Program-made: the position numbers and the translations under genes
Virus record (IMG/VR): IMGVR_UViG_2681813223_000024
DNA length: 19,623 bases
Source: a virus
Taxonomy: Duplodnaviria > Heunggongvirae > Uroviricota > Caudoviricetes
Direction: 5' to 3' (one strand)
In this document: positions 1-14,237 of the stretch, in pieces
Position numbering within the stretch: position 1 is the stretch's first letter
Layout: the number at the start of each line of letters is the position of its first letter
The notes under the pieces: model-generated
Seen by the model: the letters and a program-made list of their open reading frames with translations, nothing else
What the model was told of the DNA's origin: nothing
The model's database searches: none

Positions 1-300
1 CGTATCGTGTTTCACATCCTCAATCTCGCGTAACGCGGCACGACGACCAATTTTAAAATTGGTATCCAGCTGACCGATAATAGTTGCGCTAATCGCATTA
101 ATTTCCGAGGTAAACGCAGACAACGCAGGCTGATTACGTAAGACCTGTTCGATCTTCGCTTTCTCGGATGCCTCGCATTCACCATCTGCATAGGCCACCA
201 GGTATGCAGCGTTAATCACCGCCTGTGCCAGATCGCGTTTCTCAAACTTTTTAATTTCCGCTGCCGCTCTGCGGGTTTTCTTTTTGAAGATTCCAAACAT
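1..300 (-). CDS. TerB-like protein, 5' complete, C-terminus truncated by the window edge
   Basis: ATG at 300..298 preceded by AAGGAA about 8 nt upstream; open frame runs to position 1 giving MFGIFKKKTRRAAAEIKKFEKRDLAQAVINAAYLVAYADGECEASEKAKIEQVL... The VAYADG..E..E stretch resembles the TerB/DjlA-N family from memory. Not in the ORF track because no stop lies in the window. Confidence 0.5.
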   Translation of the reverse strand, partial: MFGIFKKKTRRAAAEIKKFEKRDLAQAVINAAYLVAYADGECEASEKAKIEQVLRNQPALSAFTSEINAISATIIGQLDTNFKIGRRAALREIEDVKHDT

Positions 301-435
301 CGTGACGTTCCTTTGGGTGGGTGAGCCAACGCCCGGGAGCGATCTGCCCACAGAGAAAGTCACACTGACCACTCCGTAAGCTCACCCCCGAAAGGCTCTG
401 TGGTTGATATGCGCCGGGCGTGGCGCAGATACAAA

Positions 436-500
436 NNNNNNNNNNNNNNNNNNNNNNNNNNNNNNNNNNNNNNNNNNNNNNNNNNNNNNNNNNNNNNNNN
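436..500. other. Run of 65 N (assembly gap or masked sequence)
   Basis: Continuous n characters from 436 to 500. Confidence 0.99.
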
Positions 501-527
501 TCGCTCTCACCACTGAGCTAAAGGGCC
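501..527 (-). tRNA. tRNA 5' portion only (acceptor 5' strand, D-arm and first nucleotides after it), truncated by the N gap; isotype undetermined, tRNA-Ile(CAU)-like by resemblance
   Basis: Minus strand reads GGCCCTTTAGCTCAGTGGTGAGAGCGA: 7-nt acceptor strand, U8, A9, D-stem GCTC/GAGC, D-loop with GG and A14/A21. Closely resembles the 5' end of enterobacterial tRNA-Ile2 as I recall it. The anticodon lies in the gap. Confidence 0.45.
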
Positions 528-563
528 GGGAGCAGAATAATAACGGTCCGTAATTAATTCCGC

Positions 564-590
564 AATAAAAAACCCGCTCAATGGCGGGTT
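564..590 (-). terminator. Rho-independent terminator candidate downstream of the Q-like gene (possible tR'-like)
   Basis: Minus strand reads AACCCGC-cattga-GCGGGTT followed by TTTTATT: 7-bp stem, 6-nt loop, U-rich tail. Lies about 80 nt downstream of the Q-like stop. Confidence 0.55.
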
Positions 591-666
591 CTGGTAAAGT
601 TCATGCGTTTGGTTCGCCTCGCGATACAGCTTTGCGAAGCTTACCGGAATTGAAGCAGTTTTTACG

Positions 667-1221
667 TCAAAAAGCAATAACTTTTTTCTCTATACCAAAA
701 GCCATAACCATTGGTTTGTACAAAATAAATTCTGCCACCTTTAGCCAATGCTCAATGCGTCTTTCACAGGTTCTTAAACTCCATTCCGGATGTGCATCAT
801 TCAGCAGTTCAGCCATTTTGCGCTTAGTCATCCCCCGCCCCACATAACGCTGACTCAGAACATTGAGCAGCCCGGGATAACCTGCCAGTACTTCACCAAT
901 AACCCTGTCGATTATTAACGCCTCTGAATCGGTACAATGCACCAGCCAGCTTTTTTGCTTGCCGTTGATCATATCCCGCAAAAAAGCCTCAAGTTTAGGT
1001 TTGTCCAGACCTGCTTTTTTCATCCTCCGGAGCGCCTCGTTAATTGCCGTTTTTGTCAGCTTTTTAGAGGTCAGCAACTGGTTGAACATATTTCCCGTCT
1101 TACCGCCGCCAATATACGACCAGCGCCCCCACATACGTAGTTTCCCCTGAATCCAGACACTTTCCAGCGTGGTGAGACGAAGGTGCTCTCCGCTTTTTCC
1201 TGTGTTCGTTGGGTAAATCAT
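667..1221 (-). CDS. Putative late-gene antiterminator Q-like protein (184 aa)
   Basis: Start chosen at the internal ATG (1221..1219), which overlaps the stop of the upstream gene as ATGA. Placed immediately after nin-type genes and before a terminator and tRNA, the usual Q position. Family assignment is from position and general resemblance, not a clear motif. Confidence 0.5.
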   Translation of the reverse strand: MIYPTNTGKSGEHLRLTTLESVWIQGKLRMWGRWSYIGGGKTGNMFNQLLTSKKLTKTAINEALRRMKKAGLDKPKLEAFLRDMINGKQKSWLVHCTDSEALIIDRVIGEVLAGYPGLLNVLSQRYVGRGMTKRKMAELLNDAHPEWSLRTCERRIEHWLKVAEFILYKPMVMAFGIEKKVIAF

Positions 1222-1508
1222 AAATAACCGTCCTTTCTCCAGATCTCTTGTGTGCGAAAAACACCTTCTGCATGCATCAGGCGCAATTCTTCTTTGGTGT
1301 AATCGCTGGTTTTTACTCTCCCGTCGATTAAATCGTGGCATGAGTTACAGGCAATCGCTGCCTGCATATCGTGTGGCTTTATCGCTGTTCCGCACGTTCC
1401 CGCCAGCCTGTAATGCGCCAGCACAGAGGTTTCGGGATTGTGATTGCAGTAGCCAGGGATTCTGATCTGGCATATCTGGCCTTTAGCCGCTTTACGTAAA
1501 TTCACCAT
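1218..1508 (-). CDS. DUF1364 / YbcO-like nin-region protein (putative nuclease), 96 aa
   Basis: Protein MVNLRKAAKGQICQIRIPGYCNHNPETSVLAHYRL..IACNSCHD aligns by eye with the recalled DLP12 YbcO pattern (RKAARG.ECQVRIPGVCNGNPETSVLAH...IAC..CHD). ATGA overlaps at both ends. Confidence 0.7.
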   Translation of the reverse strand: MVNLRKAAKGQICQIRIPGYCNHNPETSVLAHYRLAGTCGTAIKPHDMQAAIACNSCHDLIDGRVKTSDYTKEELRLMHAEGVFRTQEIWRKDGYL

Positions 1509-2107
1509 TACGCAAACTCCAGTAGTTGTGCGGCCACATTTTCAACTTCCTCCTGAGAGGAGAATTTACGGAACAGAATCCAGTTCCACAGCACATTCAG
1601 TACAGATTTATAAACCTGCTGAAACTCGACTTCGTCCATATTCGCAAAAGCGATGGATTTTGCCCGACGCCCACGGCTACCGTCCGGATAAATATGCTCG
1701 GTGTAAAATCCGGCCTGAATGGTTACCCACTCGCGGAAAGCCTCAAACGACTTTAGCAACGCCGTATCCCGGGTTCTACGAGTCGCAACGGTGTTAAGGT
1801 ATTGCTCTGCGGCATCACTCAGGGCTGGCGTGTGTTCCCGACCAACTGATTCGCACAGGTAATCAACGAAACCAGACAGCAGTTCTCGTTCGCGAGGCGT
1901 GATCGCCCCACCGACCGGAGTCCAGTAATCGAATCCCAGTTGCAGGAGTTTGAAAAAACGCTTGTGGAATGCGTAGTTACGCACACGCTTAAAATCTGCG
2001 TGTATCCACTCACCTATTTTGATTTGATGCAGAAAATCGCAACTCTCCGGCGTCGCCGGGAGAAGTAAACCAGAAGAAGTTTGTTTGACCAGTTGTATAT
2101 GCGCCAT
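1508..2107 (-). CDS. nin-region protein, probably DUF1367 family (199 aa)
   Basis: Intact 199-aa ORF with a purine-rich stretch upstream of the ATG; its stop overlaps the next gene start. Family name is from memory of lambdoid prophage neighbours of YbcO-like genes. Confidence 0.55.
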   Translation of the reverse strand: MAHIQLVKQTSSGLLLPATPESCDFLHQIKIGEWIHADFKRVRNYAFHKRFFKLLQLGFDYWTPVGGAITPRERELLSGFVDYLCESVGREHTPALSDAAEQYLNTVATRRTRDTALLKSFEAFREWVTIQAGFYTEHIYPDGSRGRRAKSIAFANMDEVEFQQVYKSVLNVLWNWILFRKFSSQEEVENVAAQLLEFA

Positions 2108-2526
2108 TTCTCAATCTCTCGATGGCGCAGTGCAGCAGATGCCAGTTGTTCAAGCTAGCACGCAAATTGTAAACCAGAATGCCAGGAAAAAACAAAACCC
2201 GCCGAAGCTGGTTGTGTGCGGTTGCGTTGAAGTCTCCTAGCCAAAGAGTAGCGGTGACCACTCCCCGCCGATAATCTTAGTTGTTTAATTTCGTAAGCTA
2301 ACTAGGCTAAAAGCTCTCTGTTGTCTGCCTGTTGTACAATTAACAAAATGAACAACGAACTAGATATACCAACGCCAGAATGGTGCAACAAATCCCAAAC
2401 AACACAGCAATGCAACAATAACATATGTTATTTTCCTCTCACGGGATTCAGTCCTGAATTCTCATAAAGCTAATCTTTTTTTAAAAACATACTGTTAGAT
2501 CACATGCACTTTCTTTCTTAACATCG

Positions 2527-2554
2527 TTGACTTCGCATGCGAAGCGTTTAAAAT
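2527..2554 (+). promoter_or_regulatory. Sigma70-like promoter candidate for the GHKL operon with a palindrome in the spacer
   Basis: TTGACT at 2527..2532, 16-nt spacer, TAAAAT at 2549..2554, about 50 nt upstream of the ATG at 2607. The spacer contains the perfect 14-bp palindrome CTTCGCATGCGAAG (2531..2544). An A/T tract TTTTTTTAAAAA lies upstream. Confidence 0.5.
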
Positions 2555-2606
2555 CAACAATTTGCACTTAAGGTATTTATTTTCCCAAACACATAGAGAG
2601 TAAATT

Positions 2607-3998
2607 ATGACTGAGAACACGACTCCAACAGCAGACTTTAGTCCTAGTAAAAGATTTTTTGTAAGTATGCTAACTCGAGATATCGACTTAAACGATGCCA
2701 TACTTGATCTGCTTGATAACTGCGTCGATGGGGCTTTACGTACAATAAAAGACACAAAAAAAACTTCAAAACCATATGAAGGATTTTATGCGAAACTTAC
2801 GATTAATAAAGATGTCTTTATTATAGAAGACAATTGCGGAGGTATCCCTAAAAGCTTCCGAGAATATGCTTTTAAAATGGGACGACCCCATCAAAAAGAA
2901 GAAGAAAATGAAGGCACCGTTGGCGTCTATGGTATTGGTATGAAAAGAGCCATTTTTAAAATGGGTAGAGATTGCTCAATACAATCGAATAATCCCGATG
3001 GCGCATTCACTGTAGATATAACACCTGATTGGATCGATGGTGATGGTTGGAAAATACCGATGCACGAGAGTGACTATGATAACAAAAATCCAACAGGCAC
3101 AACTATAGAGATAAAAAAACTCCATTCTAATGTGGCACAAAAATTTAATGAGAGCACATATCTTACTGATCTCTTTTTACAGATAAAACACTCATTGTCA
3201 TTTATTATTCAAAAAGGATTTAAAATAGAATTAAATGGAGTTGTTGTTGAACATAATCCGATTAACATCATAACTGATCATTCTAAAATAGAACCATACA
3301 TATATAAAGCTAAAATAGACGATGTTGATATCGATTTAGTTGTTGGCTTCTATAAAAATTTAGAAGATGACAATGATGATGTTTTAGAAAAAAGGAGTTC
3401 TGATGATGCTGGATGGACTGTCATTTGCAATGACCGCGTTGTTCTATATTGTGATAAGACACATCTCACAGGTTGGGGCTTTGCTAATGTACCAAGGTTT
3501 CATACCCAATTTATAGCAATTTCTGGGGTTGTTCGCTTTACCAGTAAAAACCCAGAAAAATTACCAATAACAACAACGAAACGAGGTGTCGATCTTAGTT
3601 CTACATTGTACAATGATGTACGAAATAAAATGATTGAAGGGATGATGCATTTTATTCGATTCACCAATCAGTGGAAAGGTGAGCATCTTGAAGAAGGGAA
3701 AAAATTACTTAAGTCAGCTCAGTCACATGAAGCTCAATCTTTATTTGAAATTACCCCACAATCAACTCCAGAAGATAAAAAAAATAACTGGTCCAACCCT
3801 AATAGAAACAAAAATGAGTGGCGATATACACCTAAGCTGCCTACCCCAGTAAAAAAAAGCTCTACTGTACGAATAATCTTCACCAGAGAGAAAGAAGATG
3901 TTAAAATTTTATCTAAATATTTCTTTGGACATGAAGATGCTAGCGCTTCTGATGTGGGGATGCAATGCTTTGATACGGTGATTGAAGAGGTGAAGTGA
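2607..3998 (+). CDS. GHKL / Bergerat-fold ATPase (MutL/MORC/Hsp90-type ATP-binding domain) with C-terminal extension, 463 aa
   Basis: N-terminal region shows the ordered GHKL motifs: DLLDNCVDGA (motif I, ExxxNxxDA type), IEDNCGGI (motif II, DxGxG type), GVYGIGMKRA (motif III, GxxGxG), PTGTTIEI (motif IV, TGT). Purine-rich SD (agagag) 6 nt before the ATG. Confidence 0.85.
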   Translation: MTENTTPTADFSPSKRFFVSMLTRDIDLNDAILDLLDNCVDGALRTIKDTKKTSKPYEGFYAKLTINKDVFIIEDNCGGIPKSFREYAFKMGRPHQKEEENEGTVGVYGIGMKRAIFKMGRDCSIQSNNPDGAFTVDITPDWIDGDGWKIPMHESDYDNKNPTGTTIEIKKLHSNVAQKFNESTYLTDLFLQIKHSLSFIIQKGFKIELNGVVVEHNPINIITDHSKIEPYIYKAKIDDVDIDLVVGFYKNLEDDNDDVLEKRSSDDAGWTVICNDRVVLYCDKTHLTGWGFANVPRFHTQFIAISGVVRFTSKNPEKLPITTTKRGVDLSSTLYNDVRNKMIEGMMHFIRFTNQWKGEHLEEGKKLLKSAQSHEAQSLFEITPQSTPEDKKNNWSNPNRNKNEWRYTPKLPTPVKKSSTVRIIFTREKEDVKILSKYFFGHEDASASDVGMQCFDTVIEEVK

Positions 3999-4987
3999 TG
4001 TCTGGACAATACATTCCCTATCACTTAAGGCATAATAAGTCTATTGATAGAGAGATTTTTCTCGAAAGCCTAAACCTCTTAAGCAAAAGACTAAATATTC
4101 AAGAATATACATATATAGGTTTTGGTGGTCCGATGCTTGAAGATTTTAGAATCATGCATAATCGTATCGCTCTTTCTGATATGATTTCTCTCGAAGAACA
4201 AGAGTCTACTCACATCAGACAAAAATATAATTTGCCTTATAATTGTATTGATTGTAAGCTAATATCAGCTCATGACTTTATTCTTGATTATAGTTTTTCT
4301 AAACCATCAATAACATGGTTAGACTATGCCTCCCCGAAAAAAATACAAACGGATCTAGATGATATACACTTACTAAGTACTAAAGTAAGCTCTTTTGATA
4401 TTTTGAAGGTCACCTTCCCCATAAATCCTAGTTCTTATTACCAACGTAGAGTTGGAGAAAGTTTAGATATTTTTAAAGAAGCTTTTATTAATTCATTAAA
4501 ATCATTGCTTGGGAAAAAGTATCTTGATTTTAATCTTCAGATATCAAATGCAGATCTTTCAGATCGTAAGATTAAAGCTCTTTTAATACGAATTATTACA
4601 AACGCTTTTAGATCAGCAATAGAACGTGGTCTTTCAGGACGTAAGGATAAGATTCAGTATTACCCATTATCCTTAAATCAATATAATGATGGCAGTCATA
4701 CCATGTTGACAATATCAGGTTTTTTCTCCTCAGAACAAGAATATATAGAGTTATCTAAGGCATGCGACCTTTCTAACTGGCAATTTTATTCAACAAATTG
4801 GGAAGACGTGCAAGAAATAGCAATACCAACACTAACAATTAAAGAAAAGATAAATTTAGATAGTAAACTGCCTGATAAAGAAGCATATCAGGCAGCCGCT
4901 GAAGAGTTCTCTTTAAACGAAAATGAACGGGATAACTATTATAAATACTATAGGTTATACCCTAACTTCCAAAGAATTATGGTTTAA
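3998..4987 (+). CDS. Uncharacterised protein, translationally coupled partner of the GHKL ATPase (329 aa)
   Basis: ATG at 3998 shares its A with the upstream TGA; AGGTGA lies 4 nt upstream. An in-frame GTG at 3995 is the alternative start used in the ORF track. Long uninterrupted ORF in the same AT-rich context. No catalytic motif recognisable by eye. Confidence 0.75.
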   Translation: MSGQYIPYHLRHNKSIDREIFLESLNLLSKRLNIQEYTYIGFGGPMLEDFRIMHNRIALSDMISLEEQESTHIRQKYNLPYNCIDCKLISAHDFILDYSFSKPSITWLDYASPKKIQTDLDDIHLLSTKVSSFDILKVTFPINPSSYYQRRVGESLDIFKEAFINSLKSLLGKKYLDFNLQISNADLSDRKIKALLIRIITNAFRSAIERGLSGRKDKIQYYPLSLNQYNDGSHTMLTISGFFSSEQEYIELSKACDLSNWQFYSTNWEDVQEIAIPTLTIKEKINLDSKLPDKEAYQAAAEEFSLNENERDNYYKYYRLYPNFQRIMV

Positions 4988-6106
4988 ATATTCGGGCTGT
5001 ACTCTTTTATTTAATAAATTGTACAGCCCCTTTAATATATATTCAGCAACTATTGGTGACACGCTATTTCCTATTTGTCTGAAACTATGCCATTTAGTTA
5101 CATGAAAGCGAAACCAATCAGGGAAGCCTTGTAATCTAGCAGCTTCTCTTGGTGTAATCACTCTTGGATGATAAGGGTGGATCGGCCTGACGGCTTGAAA
5201 GCTTCCTTTATCTCTAGCGGTTCCCGCCCTTAAAGTCGGGCAAAAACCATTTGGATCTAATCTTGTAGATCTTGAAATTTTATCAGTTTCCCCAAAAGAT
5301 AAGGAAGCATAACGCTCTTGGACGATTTTGCTATGTAATGTTCCGGTACATCCAGATATGATATTATTTTTTAACTTAGCGATCGATTCTGTATCACCAA
5401 CATTCCGAGGGATCTGCCCCCATAATTTTTCATAAAATCCCCCTTTTCGATCTTTTTTAATTGTTCGCCAACTCTCAGAGTCTGATTGCCAATTGGCATC
5501 GATAATATCTGGTAATCCATACAAAGCATCTTTTACAGTAACCGGATCAATCATTTTAGGCATAAATACTTCATCTGAAATATCAAGCTTCAATGATTTT
5601 TTTACACCGATAAAAAAATATCTAGTTCGAATAGTTGGAGCACCATAATCAGATGCTTTTACCTTGATGGGATCAAGAATATCATAATCACCGCTAACCA
5701 AATTAAATGCTTTATTTCTAATGCCAGAATATTTCTCTTGCATAATACCTGGAACATTTTCTGCCAAAAAGAATAATGGCTGTAATTCTGATACTAAACG
5801 GTAGAAATGCATGTAAAGCTGATTCCTGCTATCATCAGGATTCCCCTTGCCTATTGAACTAAATCCTTGGCACGGAGGACCGCCAATAATACCATCTATG
5901 GGCATATCGTTTTTAAAAAAACCCTTAATTATTTCTGCATTTAGTAAAGAAACATCTTCTTGGACGTGCAAACTTCTTGGAAAATTAATTGCGTGAGTAT
6001 TAATAGCATGTTGATCAATTTCAACTGCCATTTTAACATCAAATCCAGCACGTGCAGCACCAAGACTTAGACCTCCAACGCCAGAAAACAAATCTATTAC
6101 ATTCAT
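4955..6106 (-). CDS. DNA (cytosine-5)-methyltransferase (383 aa)
   Basis: Canonical C5-MTase motifs in order: DLFSGVGG (motif I, AdoMet binding), GGPPCQGFS (motif IV, catalytic Cys), ENV (motif VI), QIGNSV near the C-terminus, with a long variable region between. 3' end overlaps the partner gene convergently by 33 bp. Confidence 0.9.
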   Translation of the reverse strand: MNVIDLFSGVGGLSLGAARAGFDVKMAVEIDQHAINTHAINFPRSLHVQEDVSLLNAEIIKGFFKNDMPIDGIIGGPPCQGFSSIGKGNPDDSRNQLYMHFYRLVSELQPLFFLAENVPGIMQEKYSGIRNKAFNLVSGDYDILDPIKVKASDYGAPTIRTRYFFIGVKKSLKLDISDEVFMPKMIDPVTVKDALYGLPDIIDANWQSDSESWRTIKKDRKGGFYEKLWGQIPRNVGDTESIAKLKNNIISGCTGTLHSKIVQERYASLSFGETDKISRSTRLDPNGFCPTLRAGTARDKGSFQAVRPIHPYHPRVITPREAARLQGFPDWFRFHVTKWHSFRQIGNSVSPIVAEYILKGLYNLLNKRVQPEYLNHNSLEVRV

Positions 6107-6138
6107 ATAGTTGCAACGTCTCTTATTAGTTTCTATGT

Positions 6139-6147
6139 ATTATAACA
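6139..6147 (-). promoter_or_regulatory. Extended -10 promoter element candidate for the methyltransferase
   Basis: Minus strand reads TGTTATAAT (TGn + TATAAT) about 30 nt upstream of the MTase ATG. Confidence 0.4.
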
Positions 6148-6368
6148 CAACTGTTCTTGATGTTTTAACCCCATAAGATAACCTCATAAAGGCTATCCCT
6201 TGAAAATACCGGATCGCATAAATTTAATCTTTCAAAACTACTTGTCTATTAATCGAGCAATTTAAGGTTGTTTTAGTCATGTCGATACCGACATAGTTAA
6301 CTAAACCCATTTCATCGTCCAACAAATGGGGGTAATACACTTTGATTTATAGTCGGGTGGGTTTTTCT

Positions 6369-6404
6369 CTATCTGCCTTTGGTGTTCATGCCCAAGGCAG
6401 ATAG
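6369..6404. repeat. Imperfect inverted repeat (about 13-bp arms, 9-nt spacer)
   Basis: CTATCTGCCTTTGG ... CCAAGGCAGATAG, preceded by GGGTTTTTCT on the plus strand. No U-tract follows the hairpin on either strand, so it is not a canonical terminator. Confidence 0.4.
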
Positions 6405-6457
6405 CCTCAAGCACCCGCAGCAATTCTACTTAACTATCCTTTTCCCGCAAATCGTTT

Positions 6458-6541
6458 TTATCCCCAGCGGCAAATCGAATACACAACCAGCGCCACCGCC
6501 ATCGCAATTCCTACCGTTGTGAATGCTTCAGGCCAGGTCAT
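6458..6541 (-). CDS. Small hydrophobic peptide, 27 aa (MTWPEAFTTVGIAMAVALVVYSICRWG), candidate single-pass membrane peptide
   Basis: ATG overlaps the stop of the upstream gene as ATGA; GGAGGA lies 9 nt upstream; hydrophobic core of about 17 residues. Below the ORF-track length cutoff. Confidence 0.45.
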   Translation of the reverse strand: MTWPEAFTTVGIAMAVALVVYSICRWG

Positions 6542-7023
6542 CGTGAAACATCCTCCACGCTTATAAGTCCGCTTCGCTCCAGGTAGTCCATCACTTTATC
6601 CGGCAATTTGCAGCCCGGTTTCGCTTTCTTCAGTTGACTAACCAATTGTTTAACCAGCATTGTCAATTCGCGAACTTGTTTCCCGGGCTCCCCTTTGCCC
6701 TGAAGCAGGGCAGCGCGGCAAGCGTTCCATCCCTCAGCATATGTTTCAGTTACACCATCGAGATGGCATGTAAGCAAATCCATTTCTTCCGGCACTACGG
6801 GCGCTGGAAAAACGGCATAGGGTGGCGTCCATTTTGGCGCTTTATCTCCAGCCGAACGCTGCTACCAGTCATCCGGTTTGTATTCATAAAAATCACCAAC
6901 TGGCTCTGCTTCCAGCGATGCCAGCGCAATCCGTGCCAGTTCCATTTGTTCACCACGGGTAAGCCCGTTTTCAACCGGATTTTTAATGAACAATTCAATA
7001 CGTTCTTTGGTAATAGTGGTCAT
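6538..7023 (-). pseudogene. Hypothetical prophage gene interrupted by an in-frame amber (TAG) codon at 6862..6864; about 161 codons without the stop
   Basis: ATG at 7023 with AAGGAG 7 nt upstream. After 53 codons (MTTITKERIELFIKNPVENGLTRGEQMELARIALASLEAEPVGDFYEYKPDDW) a TAG occurs, then the same frame stays open for another 107 codons to the TGA at 6538. Confidence 0.6.
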
Positions 7024-7033
7024 GTGTTACTCC

Positions 7034-7297
7034 TTAACCCGCAGTGCTTTCAACTGATGAGGGGAACAAAATCTTTTCATCAAACCCTGCATTCATATCA
7101 TGAACAGCAACACACCAATCCATCGACGAACGATTATCAAGAGCCTCCATGATTTCATCCATGCGGCGTAGGTCATACAGGTAAATGCTTTTATCGCCAA
7201 TGGTGTAAAAGCCAATTTTTTTCGGTGATGGACAGCGATCAAGAACTTCCTGTAATTCGTTCAACCATGCCCGTTCTTTTTTTGTCAAAGTTGCCAT
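7034..7297 (-). CDS. Hypothetical prophage protein (87 aa)
   Basis: Internal ATG at 7297 preceded by AAGGAAA; protein MATLTKKERAWLNELQEVLDRCPSPKK...; co-oriented with the replication operon. Confidence 0.6.
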   Translation of the reverse strand: MATLTKKERAWLNELQEVLDRCPSPKKIGFYTIGDKSIYLYDLRRMDEIMEALDNRSSMDWCVAVHDMNAGFDEKILFPSSVESTAG

Positions 7298-7548
7298 ATC
7301 AGTTTTCCTTATACGGATTAATTTTATTGTGCAGTGTGTTGAATGACGCCCATACCACGTCGTTATACAATTCAATAACTGGCTCAATTATTTTTCCGAT
7401 TATCCAGACTAGGATTAACGGGGATATCGGTATCATCAACACGATAAACAGAATGAGAAACAGAAATTCTGTTGTTCTACTCTTTCGCGGATATTTTTTC
7501 TAAATAATGTGACCATTCATTACCGCCCTTTCGGGCGGCCTCCTGACA

Positions 7549-7761
7549 TTAATCGTTGTGATAACTCATAGCTTCATTTGCAGCATCAACTGGATCAACC
7601 TCCCTCCAGCAATAATTTGGGTCGGCTCCTTCAGGCGTCCACGGTTCTAATTCATTTTTTGCCGCATTCTCATCGCCAGTAATTTTAAAAATCTGCTCAG
7701 AGAATTTTCTTGCCCACTCGTTATATTTTTCCGCATTAATGGCTTTCTGTGTATTTAACAT
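7549..7761 (-). CDS. Hypothetical prophage protein (70 aa)
   Basis: ATG preceded by GGAGG on the minus strand; a GC-rich hairpin lies just past the stop. Confidence 0.6.
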   Translation of the reverse strand: MLNTQKAINAEKYNEWARKFSEQIFKITGDENAAKNELEPWTPEGADPNYCWREVDPVDAANEAMSYHND

Positions 7762-7866
7762 AAATATACCTCCAGTTAAGGATTAAATTTTATTTACAGT
7801 GCTGAACTTAATTATTCAGATTTGGATTATGCTTTCTCTTCACGAAGTTCCGATTGTTAATTTGGC

Positions 7867-8289
7867 TCACAACAGCACCTTCTGAAAATTACCCTGATAG
7901 AAAGCCAGTACACGCTGCATAGCTTCGCTCTTCCGGCACTCGCTACAGATTATGTTCAGACGCCTGTCGTAGCGGCGTATTTCTCCGTCTGGTAATGACC
8001 AGATAAGATCCGGATCAACCACAACCGGTTTCTTCACCTTTGCCCTTGATAGTTTTTTGCGGGCGTTTTGCCAGTCTTTACGCGCCTGCTCAGACGGGAA
8101 TAATCCGTAGCCTGAATTGTAAACATCACCACTGGCGACCAGTTCTCTGGCGAGAGTGCTTATGTAATACCTTGATGCACCGGTTTTAGCCTCCAGAGCC
8201 CGTAACGTCTCGCGACCGCTCAGACGTACAAGTTCAACAACCTGCCCTTTAATTTTTTCCCGCTCTTCTGGTGTAAATACTTTTGCCAT
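7867..8289 (-). CDS. Hypothetical prophage protein (140 aa)
   Basis: Start taken at MAKVF (ATG 8289) with GGAGG 5 nt upstream. The longer track ORF begins inside that SD and is rejected. Confidence 0.65.
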   Translation of the reverse strand: MAKVFTPEEREKIKGQVVELVRLSGRETLRALEAKTGASRYYISTLARELVASGDVYNSGYGLFPSEQARKDWQNARKKLSRAKVKKPVVVDPDLIWSLPDGEIRRYDRRLNIICSECRKSEAMQRVLAFYQGNFQKVLL

Positions 8290-8304
8290 AGGTGCCTCCG
8301 GCAA

Positions 8305-9066
8305 TCACTTTTCCGACACAATACGACTGGAGGAATCGAAAATCTGTCGAACAATATCCCGGTGCTTGTTCAGCTCCCGCAGCGCGGCGCAGACTCGCTC
8401 CCACTTCTGGACATGATTTTTCGCCCGACGCAGTTCGCGGTTTGCCATATGCAGCGATGGTAAAACCAGGTCATCCGCTCGCGTTTCAGTAAACGATGGC
8501 AGCGACTGCACAATGTCCGCCACCGTTTCTGTTTTAATATCTTCCTGTGTTGCAGCCTCCTGTACTGGTAACGCAACACCTGTGGGCTGAGGAAAGGCCT
8601 TACCATCAGTTTCCGCTACCGATGCTGCTTTCGGCTCTGCTGGTAAATTATCGCCCGGTATGCAGTAACGAAATTTACCGTTCTGGTTTACGCGAATCAG
8701 GCGTCCTTTGCTGATAGCCATTGCCAGCGTTGAAGCTACTTTGCGTGATGTGGTACCGAACAATGTAGCCAACTCATCCGCCGTTTGTGGGCCACGTTGT
8801 TCAATCGTCGCGGTTAAATCGCACTCTGAGATTTTCGCTACTGTTGCCATGGTGGTTTCTTCCGGCAGCTCTGCCGGCGCTGGCTGTTCCTGCTGAACGT
8901 TGTTATCAGCCACGCGCCAGGTGTATACGCTTTTATCAACGAAGCCAGCCTTTTTCAGTTCCCACAGCTCGTTCAGCACTTCTTCTCGACTGATATCAAG
9001 TCGCGTAGCCAGTTCTACCGACGTGGCTTTTCCCATCGCTTTCAGTGCGTCAAAAACGGTCTCCAT
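8305..9066 (-). CDS. YdaW-like prophage protein with probable N-terminal winged-helix DNA-binding domain (possibly DUF1627), 253 aa
   Basis: Start at [43 protein letters not shown] (ATG 9066) with GGAGG 8 nt upstream. Position downstream of the DnaC-like gene matches ydaW in Rac; family name is from memory. Confidence 0.6.
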
Positions 9067-9088
9067 TAAAATTTCCTCCCGGTAAAAA

Positions 9089-9835
9089 TTACTTCTCAAT
9101 ACCTGGCTGACCAACATTCGGGCGCCAGCTCTCCCAGTTAAAATTCACCCAGCGCCCGCCGTTCATGGTCATGCGATCCATAATCCGCTCGCCGAGCAAT
9201 GTTTTCATGGCCTCATAGTTCAGGTTTGTCAGCATCCCCACGCTGCGCATTGACGCTGTCCGGCGATCAACAATCTGGTGCAGTACCACCTGCTCGTTTT
9301 TCGTCTCGCGCTGAATACCAATTTCATCAAGAACCAGCAGATCAACTTCGCACAGTTCCCGCAAAAATTTTTCGCCTGACTGCCCGTCGTCATAGCTGGC
9401 GTGCAGGGCGCTCATAACATCAGCCACGGTAACCACAATCACTGTCTGGCCATCTTTCAGCAGGCGATTCCCGATAGCCGCCGCCAGATGGTTTTTTCCG
9501 GTACCAGGTTTTCCGCTGAACGCGAAATTTGTGCATCCGGTAACCAGTTCGTCAGCGATAGATTTCGCCTGACTCAACGCGTATCGCTGGCCGTCGTTCT
9601 GCACCTGGTAATTCGCAAACGAGCATTTGCGGTGCAACGGCTGTATGCCGGAGCGATTCAGGATTTTTTCCACCCGCAACTGACGATTCTGACGGTTGAT
9701 CTCCTCACAACGTTTCTGGCCTTCTGCAAGTTGCCACTCGCGCCACTCCGCCACCGTCCTGAATGGCGCGGTTACATGTGGCGGGGCCAGTCTGCGGATA
9801 CGTTCCAGAACGCCGCCTGTCGCAATATTTTTCAT
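9089..9835 (-). CDS. ydaV: DnaC-like replication helicase-loader ATPase (P-like), 248 aa
   Basis: Walker [11 protein letters not shown] and Walker B LLVLDEIG present; GGGGGT SD upstream; immediately downstream of the O-like gene. Confidence 0.8.
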
Positions 9836-9841
9836 GGTCTG

Positions 9842-10630
9842 TTACCCCCTGAAGCCTGGCGGGATCGCACTGTCCGGAAACGAGACGGTGTTAATCTGTC
9901 GGAGCAACGTCTCTGGCCGAACACCTTTCGGCGCGAACAAGCCCTGGTATTCATTGGCGATGCTGTGTCGAATCACCTGCTCAGGTGAAAAACCCTGCTG
10001 GCGGAATTTTTCCAGCTCCCGTATCGCCCCGTTAGCGCCCTGCTCCGTTCGAATCGGTTTTCGCAATGCCTGCCTGAACTGAACCCACTCATGCCAGAGT
10101 GTTTCCGGCAACCAGTCAGGCAGCTCGATAGCCTCCGGTTCGAATTTTTTAGACGCTCGTTTTTGGCGAGGGGGATTTAGGGGGAGATAAGTATTTATAT
10201 CTTCCTCTTTCTCTTCCTCTGGTAACGCTTTTTGATCCGTTTTTGTAACGCTGGCAGCGTTACCTTTTCGTTTCAGTTCTCGTATTTTTGTTACTCTCTC
10301 GTTTGTAACCGCCCGTTTTTTAGAGCTTTTCCCGTTATGGCGCTCAAAGTTAGGAAGCGACAACACACCATTAGTTTCGACCAGCCATCCAACCTGAATT
10401 AACGCATCAGCAAAACCAGCCATAAAAGTGATGCGATCTATTGCACTTTTTGTAACGCCGCGAGCGTTACACTCTGCGTTACCGTCTATCATTTGTTGAT
10501 CCGCCCATGCCCAGAAGCGAATGACTTTCCCTAATGCGGCATCTGGATCAATATTCAGAATCTCAGCAAGCCTGAATATTTCCGGCTTATCCGGCGTAAT
10601 AACTTCGAGCTTTATCCAGTTTGAAGCCAT
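9842..10630 (-). CDS. ydaU: Replication initiation O-like protein (262 aa)
   Basis: Position between the YdaT gene and the DnaC-like gene; N-terminus MASNWIKLEVITPDKPEIFRLAEIL matches my recollection of Rac YdaU. Contains two of the three iteron-like palindromes. Confidence 0.7.
   Translation of the reverse strand: MASNWIKLEVITPDKPEIFRLAEILNIDPDAALGKVIRFWAWADQQMIDGNAECNARGVTKSAIDRITFMAGFADALIQVGWLVETNGVLSLPNFERHNGKSSKKRAVTNERVTKIRELKRKGNAASVTKTDQKALPEEEKEEDINTYLPLNPPRQKRASKKFEPEAIELPDWLPETLWHEWVQFRQALRKPIRTEQGANGAIRELEKFRQQGFSPEQVIRHSIANEYQGLFAPKGVRPETLLRQINTVSFPDSAIPPGFRG
10245..10263. repeat. Iteron-like palindrome copy A (GTAACGCT-GGC-AGCGTTAC)
   Basis: One of three copies of TGTAACGC-N-GCGTTAC(A) spaced about 200 bp apart; this copy is inside the ydaU-like coding region. 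Confidence 0.5.
10452..10470. repeat. Iteron-like palindrome copy B (GTAACGC-CGCGA-GCGTTAC)
   Basis: Second copy, inside the ydaU-like coding region. Confidence 0.5.
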
Positions 10631-10642
10631 TTGTTTTCACCT

Positions 10643-10663
10643 TGTAACGCTCGCAGCGTTACA
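10643..10663. repeat. Iteron-like palindrome copy C (TGTAACGCT-CGC-AGCGTTACA, perfect 9-bp arms)
   Basis: Third copy, in the ydaT/ydaU intergenic region. A second perfect inverted repeat TACCGAAC-aaaaca-GTTCGGTA follows at 10673..10694. Confidence 0.5.
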
Positions 10664-10707
10664 TTTAACTGATACCGAACAAAACAGTTCGGTACGATTA
10701 ATTTCAA

Positions 10708-11130
10708 TCAATGCACTACGACAGAATCGCTAGGAGAACCGCCGCCGCTGAAATGTGCTTTACGGTAAACGGCCTGGACTGCATCATCATGCGCATCAAT
10801 TGCCGTACTCAGTGCATCCTGTGCCGCCAGTAATGCACGGCGTTCCAGGGTATCGAAGATGCAGAGTCGGTGACGCAGCTCGCGAGGAAGAATTGCCAGA
10901 ACCGCAGGGATCAGTTTCTGAATTTTTTCCCTTTGCGCATTCGTTTCACCTTTCAACCAACGATGATAGATATTCTGCTGATTGTTCCAGTCCTTGCCTG
11001 GTACCAGGGGCAATTCGCCGCCCCCCTGGCGCAGATATTCTTCAGTAATTGCGTTAGCGACCCACGCCTGCCCTTTTTCGGCTGCCAGGGCTAACAACAC
11101 TGATTCGATGTGCTCATGCTTGATTTTCAT
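10708..11130 (-). CDS. ydaT: YdaT-like protein of the cro-ydaT early-right operon (140 aa)
   Basis: Protein MKIKHEHIESVLLALAAEKGQAWVANAITEEYLRQGG... matches my recollection of Rac YdaT; its start overlaps the Cro-like stop as ATGA. Confidence 0.75.
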   Translation of the reverse strand: MKIKHEHIESVLLALAAEKGQAWVANAITEEYLRQGGGELPLVPGKDWNNQQNIYHRWLKGETNAQREKIQKLIPAVLAILPRELRHRLCIFDTLERRALLAAQDALSTAIDAHDDAVQAVYRKAHFSGGGSPSDSVVVH

Positions 11131-11381
11131 GAATCAACTCCCATCAGCTTTTTCGTAGTAGTTTTATTTCTGCCAATAGTTAAAATTGCATCGGCAGAAA
11201 ATAATCCGTTTGATGCATGAGCGATTTTTTCAGCGTAATTTGTTTCGCCGGTATATTCTGTGCGAGGCAATTTACCGTTATCCATCCATTTGTAGATTGC
11301 TCTTTGGCTGACACCACAAACGTCGGCCACAACAGAAACGCGAACAGTTTTGATTACATCTTCAAGTGTTTTCTGGTTCAT
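11127..11381 (-). CDS. Cro/YdaS-like HTH regulator (84 aa)
   Basis: Internal start at MNQKTLEDV (ATG 11381) with GAGGG 5-6 nt upstream; HTH-like segment VSVVADVCGVSQRAIYKWM; divergent from the CI-like gene. Confidence 0.65.
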   Translation of the reverse strand: MNQKTLEDVIKTVRVSVVADVCGVSQRAIYKWMDNGKLPRTEYTGETNYAEKIAHASNGLFSADAILTIGRNKTTTKKLMGVDS

Positions 11382-11460
11382 ATCACCCTCACAATGTGAA
11401 CTTTGAGTACATGCTATAACAGAACTGACAGTACATTCAAGAGCGAATATCATTGAACTT
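11382..11460. promoter_or_regulatory. Divergent immunity-region control region (OR-like) between the cro-like and CI-like genes
   Basis: 79-bp intergenic region with two AGTACAT motifs (11406..11412 and 11430..11437) and two TGAACTT motifs (11398..11404, 11454..11460). The CI-like ATG has no SD, consistent with a leaderless transcript. Confidence 0.45.
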
Positions 11461-11880
11461 ATGGTTCATGAAGATAAAGCGCGTAAAGAGTTCGCCAGTA
11501 GGCTTGCGCTAGCCTGTGAAAACGCTGGTTATGAACAACATGGAAGGCAGGCAGAAATTGCCCGTCGAATGAAATTAACACCAAAAGCGGTTAGCAAATG
11601 GTTTAATGGTGAAACAATTCCTCGCCGAGAGAAATTAAGGGAATTAGCAACACTCATTGGAACAACACCAACCTATCTTTTGGGAGAGGATACAGAAGAA
11701 AGTGGACAGATACGTTTCTATCAGGAGTTAAATCCAAGACAAAAAATCATCATTGACCTTCTGGACGAGCTCCCTGACAGTGAGACAGATGAACTTTTAA
11801 AAACTCTTGAGGAGAAAAAACAGAAGTACAATGCAATTTACGAAGAGTTAGCACGAAAGAAAAAACAAAAAGCCTCTTAA
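11461..11880 (+). CDS. XRE-family HTH repressor, CI/RacR-like (139 aa)
   Basis: HTH segment RQAEIARRMKLTPKAVSKWFNGETIP; divergent from the Cro-like gene and co-oriented with the early-left operon. Confidence 0.7.
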   Translation: MVHEDKARKEFASRLALACENAGYEQHGRQAEIARRMKLTPKAVSKWFNGETIPRREKLRELATLIGTTPTYLLGEDTEESGQIRFYQELNPRQKIIIDLLDELPDSETDELLKTLEEKKQKYNAIYEELARKKKQKAS

Positions 11881-11957
11881 ACCAGCATAAATCCGGTAGC
11901 GTCCCCCTCCGGGTTTGTGCTTCACTTTATCCCGTCTCATTTTTTTATACATAAAAT

Positions 11958-11999
11958 GTACTTAAAGTACTTTACAATGATGAACACAAAGTACATTAT
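11958..11999 (+). promoter_or_regulatory. OL-like operator/promoter region downstream of the CI-like gene
   Basis: Contains GTACTT, the perfect palindrome AAAGTACTTT (11964..11973) and AAAGTACATT (11988..11997), sharing the AGTACAT core seen in the OR-like region. TTTACA at 11971..11976 with a weak -10 about 17 nt downstream. Confidence 0.35.
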
Positions 12000-12167
12000 A
12001 TACCTACCAACCCACCCCGCCCCACAGAACGCCGGGCAATACTTCGAGTTACCAGGCAGTGGTCAGGGGTTAAGTAGCCAGCCCGAGGCGTATGAACATG
12101 ACGGCGGGATTCAAATTTTGCAGTGCAGCAGTTAGTTCCGCCACCCGGCGTTAAGGGGATAGATAAG

Positions 12168-12302
12168 ATGGTGCATTACGAAGTAGTTCAGTATTTGATG
12201 GATTGTTGCGGTATCACTTACAACCAGGCTGTGCAGGCTTTACGCAGCAACGACTGGGATCTCTGGCAGGCAGAAGTCGCTATACGTAGCAACAAGATGT
12301 GA
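12168..12302 (+). CDS. ydaG: Small Rac-type protein (44 aa, MVHYEVVQYLMDCCGITYNQAVQALRSNDWDLWQAEVAIRSNKM)
   Basis: ATG preceded by AAGGGGA; sequence matches my recollection of Rac YdaG; below the ORF-track cutoff. Confidence 0.55.
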   Translation: MVHYEVVQYLMDCCGITYNQAVQALRSNDWDLWQAEVAIRSNKM

Positions 12303-12312
12303 GATTCGCAAA

Positions 12313-12468
12313 ATGCAAAAAATCGACCTCGGCAACAACGAATCCCTGGTGTGCGGCGTGTTCCCCAACCAGGATGGAACGTTCACTGCCATGACGTATA
12401 CCAAAAGCAAAACATTTAAAACCGAAACTGGTGCGCGCCGATGGTTGGAGAAGCACACAGTAAGCTAA
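12313..12468 (+). CDS. ydaF: Small Rac-type protein (51 aa, MQKIDLGNNESLVCGVFPNQDGTFTAMTYTKSKTFKTETGARRWLEKHTVS)
   Basis: ATG 10 nt after the ydaG stop; 3' end overlaps the sieB 3' end by 4 nt on the opposite strand; recalled as Rac YdaF. Confidence 0.55.
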   Translation: MQKIDLGNNESLVCGVFPNQDGTFTAMTYTKSKTFKTETGARRWLEKHTVS

Positions 12469-12953
12469 CGATTAAAACGTCTACTCCTGCTGTTCCAGAA
12501 TAACTTCATAAAATGGGAGTATTTTTCGGTGACGAGATAATAAGAACAGTTTGCGCTATCACTCTGATGTTGAATGATGCCCTTCCGTTCTAATTTTTTC
12601 ATAACCGGGTTACGGCAAGGAGAAGTGATAATAAGATTTCCTGTTTTAAGGAAATCTTTAAATACAGCGATTTCTTTCTCAGATAAACGAAGCAATACTC
12701 GTTGCTCTGGTAGTAATGAATAATGCTTTTGAATATGTGCTCGCAATCTTGAGAAGGAAATGGCGACCACGAAAGAAAAGGCAAAAACGATAATCTGAAA
12801 GAGCCAAGGTATTTCAGTATAAGCATTGAATGCGACAGTAAACTCTTTCGGTATCAGCCAGAGAGTGAGACCAAAAATGATAATCGTATACATAAGTCTT
12901 TCGAGTGGCTCGTTAGCAAAAAGTTTCAACAATGGAGTAAATACATCCAACAT
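12465..12953 (-). CDS. sieB: Superinfection exclusion protein B (162 aa)
   Basis: Start at MLDVFTPLLKLFANEPLERLMYTIIIFGLTLWLIP (ATG 12953) with GAGAG 8 nt upstream; hydrophobic N-terminal half; opposite orientation to the early-left operon, as in lambda and Rac. Confidence 0.8.
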   Translation of the reverse strand: MLDVFTPLLKLFANEPLERLMYTIIIFGLTLWLIPKEFTVAFNAYTEIPWLFQIIVFAFSFVVAISFSRLRAHIQKHYSLLPEQRVLLRLSEKEIAVFKDFLKTGNLIITSPCRNPVMKKLERKGIIQHQSDSANCSYYLVTEKYSHFMKLFWNSRSRRFNR

Positions 12954-13171
12954 ATCAATAACTCTCAACTGTAAGGGTATTGAAATGTTAACACAAGCTC
13001 TCGCTGTAGGGGTATAGCCGAGACCACCGAAGCCCGGAGGTGGTGAAATAAAACCGGGCACAACACGAAGGCGCATTTCCGATATCCATAAAGAGTCGGT
13101 CTTGTCTGTTAAATTTAAATGGTGGGAGTGCGCCTCCGGTTGTAAATAACGACATTGCTGTGTGTAGTCCT

Positions 13172-13220
13172 GGCGGCATCAGTTTTTTTCTTGAAGTTCG
13201 GCTGATGTCCGCCCTTTTTA
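13172..13220 (+). terminator. Terminator-like hairpin between sieB and kilR (tL-like candidate)
   Basis: GGCGGCATCAG, about 19-nt loop, CTGATGTCCGCC, then CTTTTTA. Stem of 11 bp with one bulge; the large loop lowers confidence. Confidence 0.3.
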
Positions 13221-13394
13221 AAGTGAATTTTGTGATGCGATGAATGCGGCTAAGCGCACGTGGCACAGTTAAAAGTCATGTTAGTCCTTATTGGTTTGGG
13301 TGGGAAAGCCGACTGTAATTGTTAACTGGTTGCAGTCACCTGGAGGCACCAGGCACCGCATCAACAAAGTTCATTTGTAAAAATGGAGATAATT

Positions 13395-13616
13395 ATGATT
13401 GCACATCACTTCGGAACTGATGAAATACCACGTCAGTGTGTGACTCCTGGCGATTATGTTCTTCATGAAGGCCGGACATATATTGCCTCGGCAAACAATA
13501 TTAAAAAGCGAAAACTATATATTCGTAACCTGACCACAAAAACATGCATTACTGACCGCATGATTAAAGTCTTCCTCGGTCGTGATGGTTTACCTGTAAA
13601 GGCGGAGTCATGGTGA
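13395..13616 (+). CDS. kilR: Rac-type killing protein KilR (FtsZ-directed division inhibitor in K-12), 73 aa
   Basis: Start at [32 protein letters not shown] with GGAG 6 nt upstream; sequence matches recalled KilR. Confidence 0.8.
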
Positions 13617-13786
13617 TGACTAAGAAAATAAAATGTGCTTACCACCTTTGCAAAAAAGACGTTGAAGAAAGCAAAGCTATTGAAAGAATGCTTCACTTCA
13701 TGCACGGGATTTTATCAAAAGACGAACCGAGAAAATATTGCAGTGAAGCTTGTGCCGAAAAAGACCAGATGGCACATGAACTTTAA
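13616..13786 (+). CDS. ydaE: Small four-cysteine zinc-ribbon-like protein (56 aa)
   Basis: ATG overlaps the kilR stop as ATGA; [14 protein letters not shown]...YCSEACAEK has two Cys pairs; recalled as Rac YdaE; below the ORF-track cutoff. Confidence 0.6.
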   Translation: MTKKIKCAYHLCKKDVEESKAIERMLHFMHGILSKDEPRKYCSEACAEKDQMAHEL

Positions 13787-13860
13787 TTAATTGACTATTC
13801 GAAACTGAATTTATGCCAGAAATGGCAGGTATTCGCTCAACCTTAATTAAGGAGAAAAAC

Positions 13861-14136
13861 ATGATTACCAATTATGAAGCCACTGTTGTAACTACCGATG
13901 ACATTGTTCACGAGGTGAATCTGGAAGGAAAGCGCATTGGCTACGTAATTAAAACAGAAAATAAAGAAACCCCATTCACTGTGGTTGATATCGATGGTCC
14001 ATCAGGCAACGTAAAAACACTTGATGAAGGTGTCAAAAAAATGTGCCTGGTGCATATCGGAAAGAATCTGCCCACAGAAAAAAAAGCCGAATTTCTGGCA
14101 ACTCTAATTGCAATGAAATTAAAAGGTGAAATCTGA
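13861..14136 (+). CDS. racC: RacC protein (91 aa)
   Basis: Start at MITNYEATVVTTDD with AGGAG 7 nt upstream; matches recalled RacC. Confidence 0.8.
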   Translation: MITNYEATVVTTDDIVHEVNLEGKRIGYVIKTENKETPFTVVDIDGPSGNVKTLDEGVKKMCLVHIGKNLPTEKKAEFLATLIAMKLKGEI

Positions 14137-14237
14137 AAGAAATAGCCTGCGTATGGCGCAGGCTATGAACAGTGTGTATCCGGCAAGATCATTCACTGAA
14201 CAAAACGAATTTTAATCTGAGTTGAGGTTAAAAAACA

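Follow-up and report, generated by a model that had tools for sequence, protein, structure and literature searches.

GHKL ATPases of the MORC and paraMORC type have been linked to cytosine methylases and to Vsr in predicted restriction-modification (R-M) operons (Iyer, Abhiman and Aravind 2008, PMC2292703). The cassette considered here resembles these operons in that an ATPase with GHKL and S5-type domains adjoins a DCM-type methylase, in its sporadic spread over bacteria and archaea, and in the occurrence of Vsr directly upstream in two relatives (L071 and L016). It differs from them in its constant partner, which is a Rossmann-fold protein of the Methyltransf_35 (MT35) family and not a helicase or nuclease, and its ATPase could be assigned to no named paraMORC family.

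For type II R-M systems, several modes of control are described. Kpn2I is controlled by a C-protein through C-boxes (PMC6237814), the N-terminal domain of the methylase binds the operator in Ecl18kI/SsoII (PMC2760811), EcoRI is subject to control by antisense RNA (PMC3141266), and a methylation-sensitive promoter is described for CfrBI (bioRxiv 10.64898/2025.12.04.692298). As in such systems, the cassette methylase and the partner operon have separate promoters, and the dyad discussed below is found in the non-methylase promoter; by analogy with R-M biology, expression of the partner genes may need restraint. Unlike these systems, the cassette possesses neither a C gene nor an N-terminal DNA-binding extension of the methylase, and its dyad is not conserved. 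The methylase aligns residue 1 to residue 1 with M.HaeIII and has motif I at about residue 5; since it starts directly with motif I, autoregulation of the SsoII/Ecl18kI type is excluded. A domain search of the cassette revealed no nuclease, helicase or DNA-binding regulator domain, and without a recognisable nuclease the cassette may not be a classical R-M system.

MerR-type promoters are characterized by an over-long spacer of 19–20 bp and by a divergent merR-like gene. The palindrome of the present locus occupies the spacer between the hexamers, as does the dyad operator in these promoters, which are the textbook example of this arrangement, but the spacer is 16 bp long and no MerR-family gene is present. 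The promoters of temperate-phage morons are sigma70 promoters of accessory cassettes within lambdoid prophages, and their transcription does not depend on the phage operons. Like these, the promoter described here belongs to a foreign, AT-rich cassette, which is located in the nin region, has a -35 and a -10 element of its own and points against the early-right operon; unlike typical moron promoters, it travels with its cassette into non-phage contexts.

The Cassette and Its Prophage Setting

The window, i.e., the whole stretch of DNA that was analysed (19,623 nucleotides; IMG/VR record IMGVR_UViG_2681813223_000024), is a CP-933R-like lambdoid prophage of Shiga-toxigenic E. coli (STEC). E. coli carriers of the stretch include O157:H7, O111:H8 and O103:H2 strains. 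The features relevant to the present analysis are as follows.

667–1341, minus strand: Q-like antiterminator.
2190–2405, minus strand: 3' remnant of a hok/gef locus; hok homology ends at about 2395, and a truncated 21-aa ORF is located at 2340–2405.
2527–2532, plus strand: -35 hexamer TTGACT, five of six positions identical to TTGACA.
2531–2544, no strand assigned: perfect 14-bp palindrome CTTCGCATGCGAAG, containing GCATGC; C2531 and T2532 are common to it and the -35 hexamer, and 4 nt separate its end from the -10 hexamer.
2533–2548, plus strand: spacer tcgcatgcgaagcgtt of 16 nt, length kept and sequence diverged among relatives.
2549–2554, plus strand: -10 hexamer TAAAAT, five of six positions identical to TATAAT.
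2560–2564, plus strand: predicted transcription start region, 6–10 nt past the -10 hexamer according to promoter geometry.
2595–2600, plus strand: Shine-Dalgarno-like AGAGAG, 6 nt before the ATG at 2607.
2607–3998, plus strand: GHKL + S5-type ATPase of 463 aa, first gene of the operon (Pfam HATPase_c_3).
3995–4987, plus strand: Methyltransf_35 (PF20553) protein, second gene of the operon (Pfam E = 2e-89).
4955–6106, minus strand: C5 DNA cytosine methyltransferase (Pfam DNA_methylase), convergent with the operon, its 3' end overlapping MT35 by 33 bp.
6139–6168, minus strand: methylase promoter TTAAAA-N18-TG-n-TATAAT with an extended -10 element, from the consensus scan.

The minus strand carries, in this order, the Q-like antiterminator, YbcO and DUF1367, followed by a 500-bp gap before the GHKL gene; past the convergent methylase, more early phage genes are found on the minus strand. 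The three genes form an AT-rich island of about 4 kb within a lambdoid prophage, with the operon transcribed against the phage early-right operon. The left boundary of the phage backbone is set by the hok remnant. The same position holds an intact hok and entirely different cargo in L002, another E. coli prophage, so that the promoter of the operon lies inside the imported cassette and not in the phage backbone. A role of the plus-strand promoter as a Sok-like antisense promoter was considered and rejected, because hok homology ends at about 2395, the hok ORF is truncated, a search of 1900–2800 gave no Rfam match, and the promoter is cassette-borne.

Within the operon, the start of MT35 overlaps the stop codon of the GHKL gene (RefSeq places the start at 3998). 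The AF2 model of the GHKL protein (pLDDT 83) matches the ATPase and transducer modules of Hsp90/TRAP1, MORC2/3, SMCHD1 and ParE, and its family has more than 5000 homologues in the protein database. The AF2 model of MT35 (pLDDT 88.8) has a class-I SAM-methyltransferase (Rossmann) fold, with weak TM-scores of 0.35–0.43. For both proteins, sequence searches of PADLOC, NCBIfam and PDB returned no match. The C5 methylase matches PDB entry 3g7u over residues 1–367 (E = 1.3e-254), which we take to be a CP-933R prophage methylase; the match is almost perfect.

The methylase promoter is kept as well, the element TGnTA.A.T upstream of the gene being present in 10 of 10 relatives. Since the genes are convergent, the two promoters of the cassette are 3.6 kb apart; no 10-mer is common to the two promoter regions.

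The Operon Promoter

TTGACT-N16-TAAAAT agrees with the sigma70 consensus at 10 of 12 positions and is one of six sites of this quality found in the window by the consensus scan. Promoter-like sites in the window number 36, compared with 35.0 expected from shuffles, so that agreement with the consensus has by itself no weight here. The -10 hexamer ends 52 nt before the GHKL start codon with no gene between, and an AGAGAG- or CGAGAG-like block ahead of the ATG is common to the close relatives. Only AT-rich intergenic DNA separates the hok remnant from the GHKL start, and the consensus scan revealed no alternative promoter in 2400–2606.

The comparison with relatives was based on the upstream DNA of loci of the convergent type, graded over 67–88% GHKL identity. 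In eleven related loci (75–88% protein identity), TTGAC(A/T)-N16-TAnnAT is found, ending 43–54 nt before the ATG; besides the window, the promoter is carried by L156, L094, L157/158, L164/165, L159, L160, L161, L239 and L240/241. A conservation profile was obtained from an alignment of eight lineages anchored on the -35 hexamer (the window, L156, L094, L157/158, L164/165, L159, L160 and L161), in which TTGAC, TA..AT and the CA right after the -10 hexamer are invariant; TTGAC, TA..AT and the N16 spacing are likewise kept in L239 and L240/241. Over the eight lineages, the mean fraction of the most frequent base is 0.92 in the -35 hexamer and 0.83 in the -10 hexamer, compared with 0.62 in the spacer and 0.57 and 0.64 in the flanks. 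The sole exception to the divergence of the spacer is a semi-conserved GAAG(C/T)G at its positions 9–14. Upstream of the -35 hexamer, cassette-specific homology is recognisable over about 20 nt only. Conservation of hexamers and spacing is therefore well beyond chance, even though consensus matches as such are at chance level.

Promoter-bearing copies of the cassette occupy lambdoid nin regions, surroundings with purB and a resolvase (Enterobacter asburiae), and surroundings with an integrase fragment or umuC. Its conservation in phage, chromosomal and integrase-linked surroundings alike shows that the promoter is a component of the cassette and is transferred along with the other parts. A scan of metagenome contigs for further relatives yielded only two copies, which are identical, and phage and plasmid collections contained only distant relatives of the cassette.

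The strong sigma70 promoter claimed by the initial annotation is thereby supported, with the difference that it is the conservation of the hexamers, the N16 spacing and the distance to the ATG that carries the claim and not the consensus score. This conservation supports the assignment of 2527–2554 as a real, conserved sigma70-type promoter of the GHKL/MT35 operon, whose activity would follow from the same sequence evidence. The second claim made for this region, that of a perfect 14-bp palindrome located exactly between the hexamers, is correct as to the palindrome, which is perfect, but not as to its location, as it overlaps the -35 hexamer by 2 nt.

The Spacer Palindrome

Four perfect palindromes of at least 14 bp are present in the window (starting at 48, 2418, 2531 and 18105), compared with 1.36 in shuffles. 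A perfect 14-mer wholly within a promoter-like site scoring at least 10/12 was obtained in 18 of 1500 composition-preserving block shuffles; at this rate of 1.2% per window, about three such sites would be expected per 5.5-Mb genome. In 6% of shuffles, the 120 nt upstream contain an inverted-repeat arm of 7. The palindrome is nominally rare when a single window is considered, but would not stand out in a scan of a whole genome.

For the relatives, symmetry was expressed as the number of complementary pairs out of 7 over the positions equivalent to 2531–2544.

Window: CTTCGCATGCGAAG, 7/7 pairs, the sole perfect copy.
L240/241 (87%, Klebsiella aerogenes): CTTCCCTAGAGAAG, 6/7 pairs.
L239 (88%): CTTCGCATAAGAAG, 5/7 pairs, two bases away from the palindrome.
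L094, L157, L164 and L159: 4/7 pairs.
L156: 2/7 pairs.
L160 and L161: at most 2/7 pairs.

The outer arms CTTC...GAAG are common to the three nearest lineages (the window, L239 and L240), and CTT/AAG arms to three further ones; two of the arm bases belong to the -35 hexamer. Nowhere in the whole region is variation greater than at the six inner positions of the palindrome. At positions 9–10 of the 14-mer, the four nearest lineages have GC, AA, GA and TC, of which only GC completes the symmetry. The centre of L240 differs from that of the window by a swap of A-T to T-A, with 6/7 pairs kept. Inverted repeats of other sequence are found elsewhere, namely TATGATAGATCATA over the -10 hexamer of L162 and TGGATTATGGATAATCCA just past the -10 hexamer of L159. 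Among 45 dereplicated upstream regions, the longest inverted-repeat arm has a mean length of 5.04, compared with 4.65 in shuffles, and positions and sequences vary. The excess of inverted repeats upstream of the cassette is small and general, and there is no common site.

In E. coli itself, the stretch 2200–2700 is found once per genome in 176 of 5426 complete genomes. Identity is at least 99% in 173 of them, while in the remaining three the match is confined to the hok remnant (80–90%); in the one E. coli variant that was inspected, the differences are confined to the gene. Being near-identical, the E. coli copies cannot reveal selection on the palindrome. From the comparison with the relatives, the perfect palindrome is probably incidental, a by-product of sequence drift. 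As a general lesson, a perfect palindrome in a promoter spacer is no evidence of an operator when relatives are without it.

Expression and Possible Silencing

Gene-associated transcription start sites (TSSs) of E. coli EDL933 have been determined by Cappable-seq in eight conditions, combining exponential and stationary phase with LB, M9, acid and salt (PMC10469882). In this strain (NZ_CP008957.1), the GHKL gene is located at 2,157,907–2,159,298, the promoter at about 2,157,855 and the predicted TSS at about 2,157,860. Between 2,154,565 (nanS-p) and 2,177,448 (dbpA), no gene-associated TSS is listed for EDL933 in the eight conditions, and neither the three cassette genes nor any of the early prophage genes has a called TSS in the gene-TSS table; Cappable-seq calls depend on a threshold, many genes are without a called TSS, and the comparison is one of the gene-associated class. 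If the EDL933 table is taken at face value, the promoter is silent or very weak in culture. Tight repression of the operon, as put forward by the initial annotation, would be compatible with the lack of a listed TSS in EDL933, but this result says nothing on mechanism and does not implicate the palindrome.

The GC content of the cassette is 31–38%, as opposed to about 50% in the flanking phage DNA. Low-GC islands in E. coli are classic targets of xenogeneic silencing of the H-NS type. Judged from the base composition of the cassette, silencing by nucleoid proteins of this type would be at least as likely as the action of a repressor and the simplest cause of the silence.

Alternative Explanations

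A dimeric repressor was originally proposed to bind the palindrome. For the palindrome, or its CTTC-N6-GAAG core, to be a true operator, such a repressor, which would be a host or prophage factor or the cassette's own protein, would have to occlude RNA polymerase until a signal arrives, and we regard this as unlikely. The idea draws on the perfect dyad symmetry over the core promoter, on the rarity of a dyad inside a strong promoter match (1.2% of shuffled windows), and on the arms CTTC/GAAG shared by the window, L239 and L240, the last with 6/7 pairs and a compensated centre, a pattern of arms and centre that a weakly constrained dyad could give. A 10/12 promoter with no TSS detected in EDL933 in eight conditions would also fit, since a dedicated repressor would give the same silence. 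Against it, only 2–4 of 7 pairs are left in L156, L094, L157, L164, L159, L160 and L161 although the promoter is kept, and inverted repeats are barely enriched in the 45 independent upstream regions. The cassette encodes no protein of an HTH or other DNA-binding family, and none of its small ORFs is a plausible regulator; nor is a small HTH controller (C-protein) gene present in 2400–6330. A search for further copies of the palindrome, as had been suggested, yielded no second CTTCGCATGCGAAG in the 19.6-kb window even with 3 mismatches, and no second CTTC-N6-GAAG or other half-site pair there; enterobacterial phage contigs likewise contain no other copy. Among 2.9 million viral contigs, CTTCGCATGCGAAG is present in 72 stretches, 11 of which represent the same prophage and 61 unrelated sequence of varied GC, none of the latter with a similar promoter beside it. 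The methylase promoter shares no sequence with the palindrome region, and no conserved methylase site was found among the cassette promoters. Known E. coli operators (PurR, GlpR, LacI-family) would offer only a loose TTCG..CGAA resemblance to the glp operators. Because the symmetry is lost in relatives and neither a regulator gene, a second copy nor a conserved methylase site was found, the operator idea is not supported: perfect symmetry is confined to the clonal copy of E. coli, with 2–6 of 7 pairs left in the relatives. In a variant of the idea, the dyad would be a real but fast-evolving operator through which the GHKL/MT35 complex, the methylase or a host factor shuts off the GHKL/MT35 operon. 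This is quite unlikely; if true, it would account for a near-consensus promoter with no detectable TSS in EDL933, and the operator would be the first regulatory handle on a widespread uncharacterised methylase-GHKL-MT35 system.

Three further explanations concern methylation, nucleic acid structure and the promoter as such. If the palindrome contained the site of the cassette C5 methylase (e.g., GCATGC or longer), methylation of the spacer could tune the promoter in an epigenetic feedback like that of CfrBI, for which methylation sensitivity is described in the preprint cited above. The cassette does encode a C5 methylase, cytosines are found at symmetric positions of the palindrome, and GCATGC is also part of an upstream block conserved within a distant subgroup (L102, L098, L111 and others, on prophage contigs of about 30–35 kb). 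Among the close relatives, on the other hand, GCATGC is present only in the window, and their promoters have no palindromic motif in common. The inter-motif region of the methylase, which is presumed to hold the target-recognition domain, is well conserved in ten close relatives (ISGCTGT.HS, DKISRST.LDP.GFCPTLRAGT), so that these would probably recognise the same sequence, yet their promoters share no motif beyond the hexamers. A methylation switch is therefore highly improbable. A role of the palindrome as a structure formed by DNA or RNA (cruciform, hairpin or terminator), in place of a protein binding site, has its perfect self-complementarity in its favour but is extremely unlikely: the hairpin predicted for the single strand is weak (-4.8 kcal/mol) and does not stand out from shuffles (z = -0.59), Rfam gave no match in this region, and the predicted TSS lies downstream of the palindrome, which is hence not part of the mRNA. 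A run of T residues is absent past the palindrome on both strands, and a hairpin or terminator role was rejected in view of the weak fold and this absence. Finally, there might be no functional promoter in this host at all, the hexamers being a relic or a matter of chance and the operon being transcribed from elsewhere or not at all. Both the site count of the window at shuffle level and the absence of a TSS from the EDL933 gene table would agree with this view. It is nevertheless very unlikely, since the exact maintenance of TTGAC, TA..AT and N16 in some ten lineages amid diverged neighbouring sequence is hard to explain without function, no other promoter was found in 2400–2606, and what adjoins on the upstream side is a truncated remnant of hok on the opposite strand.

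The explanation which we consider probable as a whole is that of a sigma70 promoter of a mobile cassette with an incidental palindrome. According to it, the GHKL/MT35 operon would be driven by the cassette-borne sigma70-type promoter and the convergent C5 methylase by its own extended -10 promoter, the cassette residing as a moron within the nin region of a CP-933R-like lambdoid prophage, opposed to the early-right operon. The features maintained would be both hexamers, the 16 nt between them and the interval up to the start codon. The ancestral spacer would have been quasi-palindromic, with CTTC...GAAG around a variable centre, and the E. coli lineage would have drawn the completing dinucleotide, for which the chance is 1 in 16. 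The AT-rich island would be silenced by nucleoid proteins of the H-NS type or expressed at a low level, and a repressor specific for the palindrome would be unnecessary. In this scheme, we infer promoter activity from conservation, the position of the TSS from promoter geometry and H-NS silencing from base composition. As a regulatory finding, it is an ordinary one, a further well-supported case of a sigma70 promoter carried by an accessory cassette of a prophage. Together with its natural spacer variants, the promoter defines the control region of the cassette, and L239, two bases off the palindrome, is a ready-made mutant.

Occurrence of the Cassette

The more interesting object is the uncharacterised cassette of a C5 methylase, a MORC-like GHKL ATPase and MT35, which is absent from the PADLOC models. 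A literature search on 3G7U and PF20553/Methyltransf_35 returned nothing, and a search of the literature on the O157 methylome and GHKL defence systems returned no specificity or function for the cassette. If the cassette were a defence or epigenetic system, the way in which it is kept silent in the lysogen, and any part of the dyad in this, would matter.

For a survey, 155 loci gathered by an alignment-based scan of genome contigs were fetched and analysed by tblastn. Nearly all of them have GHKL followed by MT35, with a C5 methylase within about 5 kb. The methylase is located upstream on the same strand in 67 loci and, as in the window, convergent downstream in 66. The hosts comprise Enterobacteria, cyanobacteria, Chloroflexi, Planctomycetes, Firmicutes and a Methanoregulaceae archaeon, with sporadic occurrence. 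In E. coli, the cassette is carried by about 3% of complete genomes, most of them STEC.

Organization and Distribution of the Module

A C5 DNA methylase, a GHKL+S5 ATPase and a Rossmann-fold Methyltransf_35 protein (MT35) constitute a module that is kept in nearly all of 155 loci (window 2400-6330; L003-L165), the hosts being highly varied bacteria and one archaeon. Two architectures are found, namely with the methylase gene first and on the same strand (67 of the 155 loci) and with the methylase gene convergent (66 loci). Neither a nuclease nor a helicase is recognisable in the module, PADLOC gave no matches for GHKL and MT35, and no literature on the methylase-GHKL-MT35 combination was found; the module could represent a defence or epigenetic system that is linked to methylation and so far uncharacterised. 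In two loci, the GHKL gene is directly preceded by a Vsr mismatch endonuclease gene that overlaps the GHKL start, which fits with C5 methylation being active in such systems.

Vsr mismatch endonuclease genes upstream of GHKL
L071 (Azoarcus), 4564-4974
L016 (Mariprofundaceae MAG), 3957-4466

Expression Signals of the Methylase Gene

The methylase gene is preceded by an extended -10 promoter, TGnTATAAT (6139-6168, - strand), which is kept in 10 of 10 close relatives. Its start codon (6106, - strand) lies in a conserved block, GTAAC(T/C)(A/G)TATG, at which no obvious Shine-Dalgarno sequence is present. The 3' ends of the convergent MT35 and methylase genes overlap by 33 bp (window 4955-4987), an arrangement also retained in relatives (e.g., L156-L165), and expression of the two genes could be coupled through convergent transcription.

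Palindromes and Upstream Repeats

Besides the palindrome of the operon promoter, the window contains three further perfect 16-bp palindromes, all of which are AT-rich. In other lineages, represented by L159 and L162, unrelated inverted repeats are located at the same cassette promoter.

Palindromes of the window and inverted repeats at the cassette promoter of other lineages
47-62: palindrome CCAATTTTAAAATTGG
2417-2432: palindrome AATAACATATGTTATT, at the junction of hok remnant and cassette
18104-18119: palindrome TGATTATTAATAATCA, with promoter-like sites on both sides, shortly before the 411-aa ORF at 18388
L159, about 2950-2975: inverted repeat TGGATTATGGATAATCCA (8+8), immediately 3' of the -10
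L162, about 1650-1675: inverted repeat TATGATAGATCATA, overlapping the -10

A distant subgroup (~43% identity), comprising the ~30-35-kb prophage contigs L098, L099, L102, L104, L111, L116, L117, L119 and L141, has in common the conserved block TTTTTTTTGCATGCATTTTGATGCA(A)AAT, which includes GCATGC and a TGCAT-N4-ATGCA repeat and is located some 100-110 nt before the GHKL gene begins. Closer to the gene, 20-40 nt upstream of its ATG, these contigs also carry an inverted repeat that is stem-like and variable (e.g., TGCCCAACACTTGGGCA in L102).

Insertion Site and Prophage Context

A hok/gef type I toxin locus has left a remnant that is cut off at its 5' end, at the point where the cassette begins.

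hok/gef remnant
2190-2405, - strand: remnant, 82% identical to the intact hok region of L002, another E. coli prophage
2340-2405, - strand: residual 21-aa ORF

The equivalent site of L002 holds different cargo, consisting of a gene for an S8 peptidase and two genes for hypothetical proteins, and the site is therefore an insertion hotspot.

The gene-TSS table of a Cappable-seq study covering eight conditions (PMC10469882) has no entry for positions 2,154,565-2,177,448 of EDL933 (NZ_CP008957.1), corresponding to about window 1-19623 and beyond; starts are thus missing from the table for the whole early region of the prophage, even for the immunity-region regulators. For other EDL933 prophages, starts of repressor, hok and PerC genes are present (PMC10469882).

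At 436-500, the window is masked by 65 N in a row, directly followed by sequence that, as judged by eye, is apparently tRNA-derived. The homologous region of strain PA20 (L001) carries tRNA-Arg and tRNA-Ile genes downstream of a Q-like gene.
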